From NCBI GenBank assembly GCA_032249395.1, contig JAVVFY010000013.1:1-13474 (forward strand): a stretch of 13,474 nt of DNA. The letters run 5' to 3'. This DNA is from Candidatus Aenigmatarchaeota archaeon (GTDB lineage Archaea; Aenigmatarchaeota; Aenigmatarchaeia; CG10238-14; SpSt-28). Every line of letters begins with the position of its first letter. Position 1 is the stretch's first letter. Shown piece after piece: positions 261-3,790 of the stretch. The position numbers were made by a program, and so were the translations under genes. The notes under the pieces are model-generated. The model was not told where the DNA came from and ran no database searches. It saw nothing but the letters and a program-made list of their open reading frames with translations.

Positions 261-413
261 AAAATAATATTGTTTTTTTAAATAGCTTTTCGCTACTTTT
301 TATGTATATAAAATGAGAAATTGAGAAGAATTAATCCTAAGCCTAAAACTCATTTTTCTTTTTGTTCAATGTTAAGAAAGAATAAACAAATCTAAAAATA
401 AAGTAGTCTCATC

Positions 414-458
414 CTCAAGGCAAGGTTGATTCTAAATGCCTTAGAGGTGGGTGCCGCC
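414..458 (-). other. 3' strand of the 16S pre-rRNA BHB processing stem
   Basis: RNA CCCACCUCUAAGG-CAUU-UAG-AAUCAACCUUGCCUUGAG pairs with the 5' leader CUCAAGGUAAGGUUGAUU-GAUG-AUA-CCUUAGAGGUGGG (3953-3996): 4-bp central helix with two 3-nt bulges, a canonical BHB. Confidence 0.93.
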
Positions 459-500
459 TTGCACACAAAACTAAGGAGGTGATCCAGCCGCACCTTCCAG

Positions 501-583
501 TTGCCGGGTCGGTAAAGTTAAATCACCTCCTTACTCATCATTCGTCAGAGTCAAGCCATTATATCATCTACTTTACCAACCCT
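501..583 (-). ncRNA. 83-nt BHB intron after ~A1513 (helix 45); putative box C/D guide RNA
   Basis: Terminal stem GGUUGGUAAAGU/ACUUUACCGACC, central helix GCCG/CGGC (relaxed BHB); removal restores GCCGUA|CUGGAAGG. Inside: AUGAUAU(561-567)-guide-CUGA(545-548)-CGA-AUGAUGA(535-541)-guide-UUUA(519-522). Confidence 0.88.
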
Positions 584-715
584 TACGGCTACCTTGTGGC
601 GACTTAGCCCCCCTCGCGGAGCTCCCACTCGACCCTTTTGGGGCCTCGAGGGAGCTCCACTCGGTTGGCTTGACGGGCGGTGTGTGCAAGGGGCAGGGAC
701 GTATTCGGCGAACGT

Positions 716-802
716 GTTCATGGTGGCAAGATGATCTTTGGCTCTATTTCCTCATCTTTTAATCTGGAGTAGTGCATGCTAATCATTCTCACCTTACCAC
801 CA
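716..802 (-). ncRNA. 87-nt BHB intron after ~A1363 (helix 43 loop); putative box C/D guide RNA
   Basis: Canonical BHB: GGCGAACG-UCAU-CA^U-GGUGGUAAG / CUUGCCACC-AUGA-AC^A-CGUUCGCC. Inside: AUGAUUA(780-786)-guide-CAGA(763-766)-UUAA-AAGAUGA(752-758)-guide-AAGA(735-738). Confidence 0.9.
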
Positions 803-960
803 TGATGACGTTCGCCTACTAGGGATTCCGGCTTCACGAGGGCGAGTTACAGCCCTCGATCCGAACTGGGCGCGCTTTTAGGGGATTTGCTCCCCCTTTC
901 GGGGTGGCATCCCATTGTAGCGCGCATTGTGACGCGCGTGTGGCCCAGGGCTTTCGGAGC

Positions 961-991
961 TTTCGCCGAGAGAGCCAGCAGCTCAGCTCGT
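961..991 (-). other. 31-nt BHB-like mini-intron after U1205
   Basis: Interrupts the conserved GGUCCGUAU|GCUCCGAA; bulges AU^A and AA^G, imperfect central helix CCGU/GCGA, intron helix CGAG/CUCG then GAGC/GCUC. 1205 is a known archaeal 16S intron site. Confidence 0.88.
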
Positions 992-1288
992 ATACGGACC
1001 TACCGTCGCCCCCTCCTTCCTCCCACTTATCGCGGGCAGTCCCCCATGAGTGCCTCCCTTCCGGAGAAGGGAATGGCAACATGGGGCGGGGGTCTCGCTC
1101 GTTAACCGACTTAACGGCACGCCTCACGGTACGAGCTGACGATGGCCATGCACTACCTCTCGGCTCGTCTGGTAAGGTCTTCAGCCTGACCTTCATCCTG
1201 CCGTCAGCCCTGGTAAGATTCTCGGTGTTGAGTCCGATTGAACCGCACGTCCCACCCCTTGTGTGCCCCCCCGCCAATTCCCTTAAGT

Positions 1289-1338
1289 TTGGTGTAGGGG
1301 GAAGCACACCCTCTAGCCAATTCTGGCTTCGCCCCAAA
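1289..1338 (-). other. 50-nt BHB mini-intron after A908
   Basis: AAG-GGUG-AA^U... / ...CACC-AA^A-CUU; removal restores GUGAA|ACUUAAG. 908 is a known archaeal intron site. Confidence 0.92.
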
Positions 1339-1449
1339 TTCACCCTTGCGGGCGTACTCCCCAGGCGGCCCGCTTAACACTTACGCTCCGCCACCGCACG
1401 CTCCCGAAGAGCGTGCGACAGCAAGCGGGCATCGTTTACGGCTAGGACT

Positions 1450-1553
1450 TTCCCGCATGAGTTAGAGAAAATCCTAGCCATATGGGAGCAAATCATATAT
1501 CAGAGGATTAGATATTCCTCATCTTTAGAATCGGAAGATACCCTAACTCATGT
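1450..1553 (-). ncRNA. 104-nt BHB intron after ~U801; putative box C/D guide RNA
   Basis: CCCG-GU^A-CAUGAGUUAG / CUAACUCAUG-CGGG-AA^A; removal restores AUACCCCGGU|AGUCC. Inside: AAGAUGA(1519-1525)-guide-CUGA(1500-1503)-UAU-AUGAUUU(1490-1496); no clear D box. Confidence 0.88.
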
Positions 1554-1632
1554 ACCGGGGTATCTAATCCCGATTGCTCCCCTAGCTTTCGCCCCTCACC
1601 GTCGGACCCGTTCCAGGCAGCCGCCTTCGCCA

Positions 1633-2327
1633 CTCACCCAGCAGGAGTCATATCATATTGCTAAGCTTTTTAATTTTTTCTGGGTGGAAAATTGTAATTT
1701 TTTCTCGAAAATTACGAAAATTGTTATTGCCTGTTATCCAAAATCTTAGAGAAATAACCTCAATTCCATTCTTTTTTGTTTTTAATTGATCATGTTTGAC
1801 AGTTGATGCCTTTATTCCCAAATCATCCAACATTTGAATTATTTGGAGGAGATATCTTTCTAAATCAGGTCTTAACTCTATAATTTTTGATGCTTTGAAC
1901 ACTATTTGTTTTGAATTACTTGAATCTCTAAAATATCCCTCATCATCAAATATTGCACCAAGAAATGAAGACTTTATTTTATCATCTCCTTTAAAGATCC
2001 ATTCAGGTATTGTAGTTGGTTGAGTAATTTTAGAACCAATTGGCGCGCCTCTTTCTGAAAGAAATTTTCCAACTCTGCTAGGGTATTGATACCTTAATAT
2101 TCCTCCTATAGAAGTCCCTACATTGTATTTGATATTACCGAAAGTTTTAATTACAAGTTCTTTGACTTTTCGTTGAAGAACATTGTTGGAATTTGTATAG
2201 ACGAAGTAATATTTGGTTTTATGGATTGAAGCATCGCCAAAGACATGACCAATCAATCTGGCAATCGCTGTTTCTCTCTCCATAAACTGTTTTTTAATGT
2301 TTATTTTAATTTTCTGACTCCTGCTGA
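1633..2327 (-). mobile_element. 695-nt BHB intron after G722 carrying a homing endonuclease gene
   Basis: CACC-AG^U-CAGCAGGAGUCA / UGACUCCUGCUG-GGUG-AG^U; removal restores CACCAG|UGGCGAAGG. AT-rich interior containing an ORF. 722 is a known archaeal intron site. Confidence 0.93.
1648..2283 (-). CDS. Intron-encoded two-motif LAGLIDADG (DOD) homing endonuclease
   Basis: Motif 1 ARLIGHVFGDASI, motif 2 SSFLGAIFDDEGY, intein-type IPEWIF segment, C-terminal F...I.IFHPEK..KL. Confidence 0.9.
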   Translation of the reverse strand: MERETAIARLIGHVFGDASIHKTKYYFVYTNSNNVLQRKVKELVIKTFGNIKYNVGTSIGGILRYQYPSRVGKFLSERGAPIGSKITQPTTIPEWIFKGDDKIKSSFLGAIFDDEGYFRDSSNSKQIVFKASKIIELRPDLERYLLQIIQMLDDLGIKASTVKHDQLKTKKNGIEVISLRFWITGNNNFRNFREKITIFHPEKIKKLSNMI

Positions 2328-2362
2328 CTGGTGGTCCGCATGGGATTAACGGATTTAACCCC

Positions 2363-2485
2363 TTAGGGTGGATAGTGCAGTCTAAACACTAAAATAGAAT
2401 ACACTCTAGACTATGAGCTAAATCTTAATTCTAAAAATCATTTCATCGCATAAAAGCTCAAAGGTACGCACACTACACTATCCAT
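2363..2485 (-). other. 123-nt BHB intron after ~A687 (helix 23); possible degenerate C/D-like RNA
   Basis: GGGG-UA^A-UGGAUAGUGUAGU / ACUGCACUAUCCA-CCCU-AA^G; removal restores GGGGUA|GGGGUUAAAUCC. Only 35 nt of exon separate it from the 722 intron. Confidence 0.9.
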
Positions 2486-2986
2486 TACCCCATGCGTACC
2501 GCTGCCCTCTCCCGGTCCCGAGCCTGGTAGTATCCCAGGCAAGCCCTGCAGTTTGCTGCAGGATTTCACCTGGGACACACCAAGCCGGCTACGGGCGCTT
2601 TAAGCCCAATAATCGTGACCACCACTCGGGGCGCGGGTATTACCGCGGTGGCTGGCACCCGTCTTCCCCACCCCTTCCTCGCCCTCCCGTTTTCAGAGGG
2701 CAACAGCCCCAGCAGAGCTGGGGCACTCCGGGTCCCCTCGTCGGGCGTTAGCCCATTGCGAAGGTTTCGCGCCTGCTGCGTCCCGTAGGACCTGGGCTCA
2801 TGTTTCAGAGCCCATCTCCGGGCTCCCACTCTCATGGCCCGTAGGCGTTATCGGCTTGTCGGGCCATTACCCCGACAACAACCTGATACCCCGCAGTCCC
2901 ATCCTCGGGCGGCTACGAACACCCTTTGAGGATAGGGGCCTTCCAGCACCCTATCCCTATGGGGTATTAGCCCCAGTTTCCCGGGA

Positions 2987-3790
2987 TTATCCCCATCGGG
3001 CTACCTGTAAAGCTAAGGCAGAAAGATCGTTAATAAAAATAAAATCAAAAGCGTCTTTTAACAACTCTTGTTGATATGGTGTTATTGGCAAATTTGAAAA
3101 CAAAACTAATACTGAAGTTATTTCTGGATAAAGTTTTTTTAATCTAAAGCCTCTTAGTGCAACTCTTTCAATTATTGCATATCTGTGAGAGTATTTTGTT
3201 GATGAAGTAGAGGTAACAAGAATTGCTATTTTCTTTTTTGGAATGAAAATATCTACATTTATTTTTCCCACATATTTGTGAACTTCAATATCGCTTTCGC
3301 TAAGACCACCGTTTTTAAGGTATTCTATTACTTTCTTTTCGTCTTCTCTCACTATTTCTCTTCTTGCTGCTTTTTCTAGTATTTCGCGATAATTGTTTGA
3401 AGAAATATAGTTGATTATGCTTTTTCTTATTTTGTTCTTAATTTCTTCTCTTTTTTGAGGAAAGAATATCTTCTCCAGATTTGTATAGAAAAGTTTGTCA
3501 ACATCTTTAGAGTGGCTTATAGTTTCGATGGTCTCTTGAATGAAAGCCATTAATTTTTTTAATTTTGTATGATTTCTAATTTGCTTAATTCTACCACATT
3601 CGTAATCGCTGATTGATGGATCTACGTTTCTCTTAAAATCTTCTTGCTTAATTCCTCTGAGTATTCTAAAAATCTTTAGGCATTTTGGATTTGTTTTGAT
3701 ATAATCTTCGTTTATTTCTTTGAAATTATTTGTCGCTTTTTTGACTTCGTTGAACAATTTTATTACTTCGCTTATATTCGAGTTTACCAT
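2987..3790 (-). CDS. Intron-encoded protein: XRE-type HTH plus C-terminal PD-(D/E)XK/Vsr-like nuclease fold (candidate non-LAGLIDADG homing endonuclease, possibly inactive)
   Basis: LKIFRILRGIKQEDF...SISDYECG resembles HTH_3; EKKVIEYL...IEVHKYVGKINVDIFIPKKKIAILVT resembles a restriction-endonuclease-like core. The linear stop codon lies in the exon, beyond the 3' splice site. Confidence 0.7.
   Translation of the reverse strand: MVNSNISEVIKLFNEVKKATNNFKEINEDYIKTNPKCLKIFRILRGIKQEDFKRNVDPSISDYECGRIKQIRNHTKLKKLMAFIQETIETISHSKDVDKLFYTNLEKIFFPQKREEIKNKIRKSIINYISSNNYREILEKAARREIVREDEKKVIEYLKNGGLSESDIEVHKYVGKINVDIFIPKKKIAILVTSTSSTKYSHRYAIIERVALRGFRLKKLYPEITSVLVLFSNLPITPYQQELLKDAFDFIFINDLSALALQVARWG

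Follow-up and report, generated by a model that had tools for sequence, protein, structure and literature searches.

The 83-nt insertion in helix 45 of the 16S rRNA gene, found after E. coli position 1513 at positions 501-583 (minus strand) of the window (the whole stretch of DNA analysed, 13,474 nucleotides), is very probably a box C/D-type dual-guide sRNA carried inside a bulge-helix-bulge (BHB) intron and released as a circle. Exact cuts at 583/584 and 500/501 release it from the precursor, the flanking exons become joined, and RNA shows the intron back-joined. Comparison of the homologous sequences establishes that what selection has maintained in one of the two guides is pairing with the 16S 3' tail, whatever the tail sequence.

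The 16S rRNA gene and splicing of its helix 45 intron

An archaeal 16S rRNA gene was located at 3110-474 on the minus strand (Rfam RF01959, 1004.9 bits, E 1.7e-296), with the complement of its tail reaching 472. Skip junctions in RNA contigs from three runs identified six spliced introns in this gene, and the Rfam 16S alignment placed an insertion of 83 nt in helix 45 among several large insertions. The genome is AT-rich (31.9% G+C) and small, at 752,806 bases in 25 contigs and 89.5% completeness, and its source is a tiny hot-spring archaeon.

Contigs from three metatranscriptome runs (three studies) and one DNA run were compared with positions 380-3200 of the window. A splice junction 500->584, at which 83 nt are skipped, was present in 3/3 RNA runs and 0/1 DNA run, and a back-junction 583->501 (83 nt back), as would arise from a circular or tandem intron, was likewise present in 3/3 RNA runs and 0/1 DNA run. 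A single contig of the DNA run spans 380-1018 with neither junction. The RNA evidence consists of assembled contigs rather than raw reads, which show presence and whose depth is not usable as abundance. Two short joints in the DNA run, 492->672 and 498->666, each side of which measures 22-24 nt, were set aside as 16S of other organisms. Among RNA contigs the intron varies only at 532 (A to G, with a G.U pair kept) and at spacer positions 543 and 544, the boxes being invariant. Five other insertions were spliced in the same RNA runs (716-802, 961-991, 1449-1552, 1632-2326 and 2363-2485), and the one at 1632-2326 carries a LAGLIDADG ORF. At least two other introns of the same 16S look alike, as possible guide carriers.

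The location in helix 45 given to the intron by a preliminary description is borne out by these junctions, which set its extent to 501-583. Read from the sequence, excision of 501-583 restores a normal helix 45, GCCGUA-CUGGAAGGUGCGGC, with a GGAA loop. The exon GCCG (589-586) can pair with the intron CGGC (506-503) to form a BHB central helix of 4 bp; each cut is placed 2 nt 3' of a strand of this helix, one after UA and the other after AA, and the outer helix has just 2 bp, which makes the motif a relaxed bulge-helix-bulge. A terminal stem of 13 bp, with the 5' strand GGGUUGGUAAAGU (570-582, minus strand, partner 518-506) and the 3' strand ACUUUACCGACCC (506-518, minus strand), was predicted when the intron was folded by itself (-27.3 kcal/mol) and again when the precursor was folded at 70 C. 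A splicing endonuclease is present in the genome as two PF01974 matches (93.9 and 79.6 bits).

Box C/D architecture

Along the intron RNA the elements were read in the order UAGAUGA, AAUGGCUUGACU, CUGA, CGA, AUGAUGA, GUAAGGAGGUGA(U), UUUA or UUAA, and stem, all on the minus strand. The box C-like UAGAUGA (564-570) has the GAUGA core and departs from RUGAUGA at its first two positions; this variant is common to many homologues, and among the 53 homologues listed the GAUGA core is present in most and altered in several (e.g. AAUGA, UAUGA). It is followed by the D' guide AAUGGCUUGACU (549-560), box D' CUGA (545-548), a C'/D' spacer of 3 nt, CGA (542-544), and a perfect box C' AUGAUGA (535-541), which gives a canonical internal C'/D' pair. 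The D guide GUAAGGAGGUGAU (522-534) includes a 12-nt complement of the 16S tail (533-522), and at the position of box D (518-522) stands UUUA (522-519) or, when aligned with relatives, UUAA (521-518), with the G of GA missing. Spacing is 12 or 13 nt from C' to D and 14-15 nt from C to D', the latter longer than the usual 12.

Of the features that define an archaeal box C/D sRNA, D' and C' are present internally, a short spacer apart, and a terminal CUGA box D was not found. An alternative kink-turn, with the GUGA inside the guide as box D, was rejected by hand, as it placed extra nucleotides on the wrong strand. Fibrillarin (234 bits), Nop5 (210.6 bits) and L7Ae (96.7 bits) are encoded in the genome, all over Pfam cut-offs. 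A strict regular expression for other C/D sRNAs returned 0 matches in the genome, and a loose half-guide scan returned 20, mostly low-complexity noise.

Homologues and their host genes

Inspection of the 16S 3' region from 40 relatives showed that this core is shared by other genera and families and that its position within the 16S differs. The pattern GGYTTGACNCTGAN{2,45}GGAGGTGA was matched in 56/118 genomes of the order, nearly always as a single copy (reversed control, 0/118), and with the last guide base relaxed to R it was matched in 63/118 genomes of the order and 2/253 elsewhere in the phylum; both the 56/118 and the 63/118 pattern demand GGAGGUGA, the conservation of which is to that extent circular. 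A pattern lacking the tail guide was matched in 67/118 genomes, some matches being chance occurrences in unrelated coding-like sequence (L218, L227). Fifteen new places found with this pattern were inspected; 2 were coding-like, and 11 of the other 13 were guide variants with a wobble or one mismatch. A loose pattern, TTGACNCTGAN{2,32}GGAGGTGA, applied across all genome contigs, returned at least 120 stretches; among the matches listed almost all were bacterial chance matches, and the only true family member was L111, identical to the tRNA-Ser locus L047. The D' box was required by every search pattern used, and the D' variants CCGA (G028) and AUGA (G018) were spotted by eye.

Seventy-two copies were parsed for host, and one further copy, G061, outside this parsing, was read by eye. 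The host is the canonical tRNA-Ser(UGA) intron in 29 copies by motif and in 2 by aragorn only. In the 16S, copies were found after about 1491 (9 copies), after about 1500 (11 copies), after 1513 (20 copies) and after about 1520 (1 copy), and conservation at the window's own site, 1513, which the preliminary description had left to be checked, accordingly extends to 20 of the 72. All four 16S sites lie between the two target sites of the sRNA. Each genome has one host where checked, and the host sometimes differs within a genus, the counts of such changes being upper bounds, as 16S contigs are often mis-binned (G049 and G103 have two copies each). The 16S 3' region is without an intron in the tRNA-hosted genomes G022, G027, G030, G034 and G037, and the window genome's own tRNA-Ser(UGA) intron is 33 nt long and without 16S guides.

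Pairing of the D' guide with helix 44

The predicted target of the D' guide belongs to the decoding site of the ribosome and is the 5' strand of helix 44, G1405-A1413 (666-674, minus strand), in which the N+5 nucleotide is A1408 (671), with E. coli numbering counted by hand from the conserved CCGCCCGUCA motif. The guide forms 9 bp with 16S GUCAAGCCA (674-666), with a duplex energy of -16.1 kcal/mol. In the 47 genomes with a known sequence for the guide and for their own helix 44, 9/9 positions pair in 34 and 8/9 in 13, and the mismatches are confined to the ends.

Helix 44 itself varies. In most genomes it reads GUCAAGCCA and the guide reads UGGCUUGAC. The variant GUCAAACCA is accompanied by the guide UGGUUUGAC (U) in 3/3 genomes, GUCAACCCA by UGGGUUGAU (G) in 2/2, and GUCACGCCA by UGGCGUGA(C/A) (G) in 5/5 genomes of genus g2 (4 tabulated, and G018 by eye).

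Pairing of the D guide with the 16S 3' tail

The predicted target of the D guide is the anti-Shine-Dalgarno tail at the 16S 3' end, A1531-A1542 (472-483, minus strand; C1535 is 479 and C1536 is 478). On the plus strand TAAGGAGGTGAT (472-483) is the exact reverse complement of ATCACCTCCTTA (522-533); in rRNA sense, the intron UAAGGAGGUGAU (533-522) is complementary to the tail AUCACCUCCUUA (483-472). The duplex consists of 15 contiguous pairs (12 Watson-Crick, two G.U at 521.484 and 520.485, and one A-U), at -24.9 kcal/mol at 37 C. Counted on both strands of the 752,806 bases, the 12-mer occurs at exactly two places in the genome against 0.08 expected from composition, and the pairing is therefore not due to chance. 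The preliminary description had drawn attention to a perfect 12-nt complement of the tail, its extension by two G-U pairs, its place in the guide slot and the lack of a following start codon, and each of these observations holds: the extension gains the further A-U pair, the complement lies between the perfect C' (541-535) and the degenerate box D, and ATG, GTG and TTG are absent within 12 nt after it.

The tail is unchanged in most genomes; where its positions 1537-1542 vary between genera, the guide varies accordingly. The tail AUCACCUCCUUA and guide UAAGGAGGUGAU of the window's genus are replaced in G011 by the tail UCACCAUAAA (given also as GGAUCACCAUAAAAU) and guide UUUAUGGUGA, and in G013 by the tail AUCACUACAAA (given also as GGAUCACUACAAAAAU) and guide UUUGUAGUGAU. 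The longest paired runs with the genome's own tail are 13 in the window's genus, 10 in G011 and 12 in G013, against 4 to 7 with tails of the other types. A shifted duplex of 9 pairs tracks the altered tail of G099. The tail duplex is only 8-9 bp long in most members of family f2 and 7 in G061, and the D guides of G092 and G093, whose own tails are not known, have one mismatch. CCUCC has been lost from the tail in sister genus g4. The tails of genus g2 are also without CCUCC; there the D-side guide has no tail match (no run above 5 in the 4 tabulated genomes), and what survives, in the tRNA-Ser intron, is the D' half alone. Across both arms guide and target change together, each of the four helix 44 variants and each of the three tail variants being matched by its guide. 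As the guide follows the tail even where CCUCC is lacking, the pairing would serve the ribosome 3' end (maturation, folding or methylation) and not mRNA recognition.

A trivial origin of the complement, with GGAGGUGA remaining as the ribosome-binding site (RBS) of a deleted homing-endonuclease ORF, had been raised in the preliminary description as the case against its own reading. The element is a good Shine-Dalgarno sequence, at least three of the six further copies in the genome stand 4 nt upstream of an ATG, and a LAGLIDADG ORF is carried by another intron of the same gene. The absence of a start codon downstream argues against such a relic, as do the length of the intron, only 83 nt, and the lack of an ORF in any of the 72 homologues examined. 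Moreover, the element is placed between the C' and D boxes and is present in tRNA introns, the tRNA-Ser homologues keeping the complement even without a CCUCC tail, and in just those genomes whose tails differ it is replaced by UUUAUGGUGA and UUUGUAGUGAU. This covariation excludes a leftover RBS, an account that we consider scarcely credible.

The second of the two functions offered in the preliminary description was a cis-acting mask, by which the unspliced intron would sequester the anti-Shine-Dalgarno tail and keep immature 30S subunits off mRNA. Shine-Dalgarno sites are in use in this genome, a 5-mer being found at -20..-3 of 114/614 ORF starts against 40/614 in a control window, with a peak at -13 to -9. 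At 37 C the lowest-energy structure predicted for the naked precursor is an intron:tail hairpin (-45.6 kcal/mol) that excludes the splicing-competent stem, and by this prediction a cis mask would be physically possible in the window's organism. At 70 C, however, the predicted fold is the stem with the BHB, and the excised intron yields a circle junction in RNA. The pairing has also been kept in G011 and G013, though their tails are not anti-Shine-Dalgarno sequences. Finally, at least 29/72 copies (31 with those found by aragorn only) are in the tRNA-Ser intron, from which only action in trans is open to them. Because so many copies act from a tRNA intron, masking is not the conserved role, and we consider it an unlikely explanation of the complement.

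Loss of the box D guanine and the predicted methylation site

A box ending in GA stands exactly one nt after the guide core in 64/72 copies (UUGA in 44, CCGA in 13, CUGA in 3, GUGA in 2, and UCGA and ACGA in 1 each). The 8/72 exceptions comprise all six genomes of the window's genus (UUAA or UAAA), G013 (UUAA) and G028. In the register of the relatives N+5 falls on C1535 (479), and in the UUUA reading with a 12-nt spacer it falls on C1536 (478). The proposal of a guide for Cm1536 in the preliminary description accordingly stands as to the guide slot of a box C/D RNA; as to the nucleotide, N+5 is C1535 in the relatives' register, and box D lacks its G. Methylation of the tail in the window's genus, at C1535 or C1536, is an unproven candidate.

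The predicted N+5 nucleotide varies, being A1534 for Nanoarchaeum equitans sR13, C1535 in most of the order and C1536 in the UUUA reading. A shifting N+5 would fit selection for the pairing better than selection for one methyl group. With a box D lacking G and a box C reading UAGAUGA, the terminal kink-turn may not bind L7Ae, which counts against the dual-guide reading. Only the G of GA is lost, and one of the two sheared kink-turn pairs could remain; natural kink-turns in which the second pair is A.U or A.A rather than G.A do fold.

Some snoRNAs pair without modifying, and the D guide of the window's genus could similarly be a chaperone that pairs only, holding the tail (and through D' also helix 44) during folding of the 3' minor domain or 3' end maturation with no methylation. 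Consistent with this are the loss of the box D G in 6/6 genomes of the genus and also in G013 and G028, the length of the window's complement, the longest in the set, the tracking by the guide of the tail positions that vary between genera, and the differences in the N+5 nucleotide among lineages. Retention of a GA box D at a fixed distance of 1 nt from the guide core in 64/72 relatives, its persistence as ACGA in G011, a member of the sister genus with the same intron site, and the folding of kink-turns with a non-G.A second pair argue the other way. We regard pairing without methylation as a tentative possibility, to be taken seriously though somewhat doubtful. The tail arm in the window's genus may be a methylation-independent tether.

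Proposed mode of action and mobility

In the reading that we prefer, a dual-guide sRNA released from a BHB intron, the sRNA would assemble with L7Ae, Nop5 and fibrillarin, and the D' guide would direct 2'-O-methylation of A1408, its predicted site. The 3' tail would be held by the D guide, which in relatives whose box D is complete would also direct methylation of C1535. In the window's genus the tail pairing may still guide methylation of C1535 or C1536 by way of an atypical kink-turn; alternatively, it may only be an accessory or chaperone contact by which the particle is anchored to the precursor's 3' minor domain. Because one transcript has a target on either side of the intron, the RNA could act in cis before splicing, or in trans as a circle; relatives with a tRNA-Ser-hosted copy would act in trans only.

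The changes of host could be explained if the guide RNA travelled with its intron: the excised RNP circle, bound to both of its targets on the rRNA, would be reinserted nearby by reversed endonuclease and ligase reactions, the insertion being fixed via a DNA copy. We consider this route rather unlikely; if true, it would amount to guide-directed mobility of a protein-spliced intron, and the guides that modify an rRNA would have that rRNA's gene as their host.

Comparison with known systems

Eukaryotic intron-encoded snoRNAs are released from introns of translation-apparatus genes, and there are snoRNAs whose accessory pairing with pre-rRNA aids methylation or folding. The intron-encoded ones are carried by spliceosomal introns, within protein-coding or non-coding genes rather than within the target rRNA itself.

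The sRNA family and its A1408 guide are already known from N. equitans sR13 (Randau 2012; Dennis et al. 2015, PMC4644070). In the sR13 rows of supplement 1 to that paper the same order of boxes is found, the D' guide with D' (UGGCUUGACUCUGA) is identical over 14 nt, the D' target is predicted as 16S A1395 in the numbering of that paper (E. coli A1408), and the D target is given as 'NP' (none predicted); methylation at E. coli A1408 was predicted in S. acidocaldarius and N. equitans (PMC4644070). By those rows sR13 is expressed (45,100 in the last column of the table, taken as read counts) and its D guide contains GGAGGUGAU (PMC4644070). It differs from the window's intron in its canonical C and D boxes, the latter lacking in the window a G, and in the 2 nt between guide core and box D, which would give A1534 as N+5, against 1 nt in most of the order (PMC4644070). 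It is listed by genome position, with host context not given in the rows, whereas the window's copy is in a 16S intron. Pairing of sR13 with the 16S tail is not reported in PMC4644070, and the word 'Shine' is absent from its text.

Mobility of C/D sRNAs, their residence in tRNA introns and their circular forms are raised in Randau 2012 (PMC3491384). The circular or 'mobile' C/D sRNAs of Pyrococcus furiosus and N. equitans treated there resemble the window's element in being circular and in occurring in varied genomic contexts; the circle of the present intron comes from its excision, and for this family host changes between the tRNA-Ser intron and four 16S sites are documented here. The sRNA in the euryarchaeal pre-tRNA-Trp intron (Haloferax, and Pyrococcus sR50) is likewise a C/D guide borne by a BHB intron and aimed at its own host transcript, in cis or in trans (PMC7994747). 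In that case the sRNA lies in a tRNA and is aimed at tRNA nucleotides 34 and 39, whereas the window's sRNA is hosted by the 16S and aimed at helix 44 and the tail; in the tRNA-Ser-hosted relatives, unlike the pre-tRNA-Trp case, the sRNA is aimed at rRNA and not at the host tRNA. In the available part of PMC7994747 the tRNA-Trp intron is the sole intron-borne archaeal C/D sRNA named.

The 16S BHB introns of Thermoproteales (PMC4496867) are, as in the window's gene, protein-spliced and situated in conserved 16S helices, some with LAGLIDADG ORFs; that survey makes no mention of sRNA, snoRNA, guide or methylation. A 16S insertion of Micrarchaeota (PMC8784108) has only a 522-bp ORF, its splicing is uncertain, and no guide RNA is described. 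The tail target, the residence in a 16S intron and the host changes were not found in the literature searched, where Additional file 2 of Randau 2012 (PLEXY targets) may bear on the 'NP' entry.

Set beside these systems, one new point is a guide selected to pair with the 16S anti-Shine-Dalgarno tail. The introns of an rRNA gene would here encode guides against the same rRNA, an arrangement for which, in the portions of the literature available, an archaeal precedent was found only in the tRNA-Trp intron. The repeated host changes, involving the tRNA-Ser intron and four 16S sites, form a data set on how BHB introns and C/D sRNAs move, and one genus, in which box D has naturally lost its guanine, offers a test of whether an archaeal guide RNA can work with one canonical kink-turn and a long helix.

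Further guide-like introns in the 16S rRNA gene

Two of the spliced mini-introns in the window's 16S rRNA gene, at 1449-1552 and 716-802 (both minus strand), present elements in a C/D-like order, AGAUGAGG, UAUCUAAUCCU and CUGA in the first and AAUGAUUA, CAUGCACUACU and CCAGA in the second. As read from the sequence, UAUCUAAUCCU of the intron at 1449-1552 is complementary to GGGAUUAGAUA, directly upstream of the intron's own insertion site, and CAUGCACUACU of the intron at 716-802 is complementary to GGUAGUGCAUG in the 16S rRNA (window 1157-1147). The two introns thus look like further C/D-type guides directed against the same 16S rRNA. Intron homologues with the same guides at the same 16S sites were found in other genera and families (loci L004, L006, L018 and L050; L002, L003, L021, L025 and L058).

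Guide-like RNAs at serine tRNA genes

The tRNA-Ser(UGA) gene of the source genome (G000, contig C5:26684-26803, complement) carries a 33-nt intron that contains ACUCAAGG followed by A and CUGA. Because ACUCAAGG is complementary to the tRNA's own anticodon loop, CCUUGAGU, this intron looks like a half guide with the wobble region as its putative target. In several relatives the motif was found in the tRNA 5' leader instead. In genus g2 (L234-L238), the intron of another serine tRNA, whose anticodon is CGA, contains a further C/D-like RNA, in which AAUGAUAAGCUCUGGGGUAGCUGA is followed by AAUGAUGA; this second case suggests that tRNA introns are common hosts of guide RNAs in the family of that genus.

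Additional introns and variant 3' tails in 16S rRNAs of relatives

Four loci from other species of the source organism's genus (L003-L006, in genomes G004, G008, G006 and G007) carry an additional intron of ~60 nt between GUCGCCAC and AAGGUAGCCG, which contains AAUGAUGA and a GUCUGG stem and is absent from the window's 16S rRNA gene. In the 16S rRNA of L016 (genome G013), the guide-bearing intron at site 1513 (E. coli numbering) is accompanied by another mini-intron, ~31 nt long, which follows GGGAAC in the loop of helix 45.

16S 3' tails without CCUCC were found in genus g2 (L007-L010, L012 and L014) and in the sister genus g4 (L035 and L016), and read GGAUCCCUCUCAG, GGAUCACUCAGC, GGAUCACUUAAU, GGAUCACCAUAAAA and GGAUCACUACAAAA. 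With CCUCC missing, the canonical anti-Shine-Dalgarno sequence appears, from these tail sequences, to have been abandoned. The 16S rRNA at L019 (genome G003, contig C57) lacks a helix 45 intron but has 17 additional bases within its tail, which runs GGAUC, UAGUUAAAUCCAGGAUA, ACCUCC. G003 may be a mixed bin, since its completeness is 58% and it contains another 16S fragment.

Two copies of the box C/D sRNA of the helix 45 intron were found in each of two genomes, at a tRNA-Ser intron and a 16S site in G049 and at two 16S sites on two contigs in G103; these double copies likely stem from mixed bins or mis-binned rRNA contigs.

ORF-bearing and minimal introns

The 695-nt intron at 1632-2326 (minus strand), with a 211-aa LAGLIDADG_3 ORF at 1648-2283 (32.7 bits), was spliced in three RNA runs (metatranscriptome contigs), and its circle junction was found in one. 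The 31-nt insertion at 961-991 (minus strand) was spliced in 3/3 RNA runs (junction 960->992), as an intron rather than an expansion segment. At 31 nt, it is unusually small for an rRNA intron.
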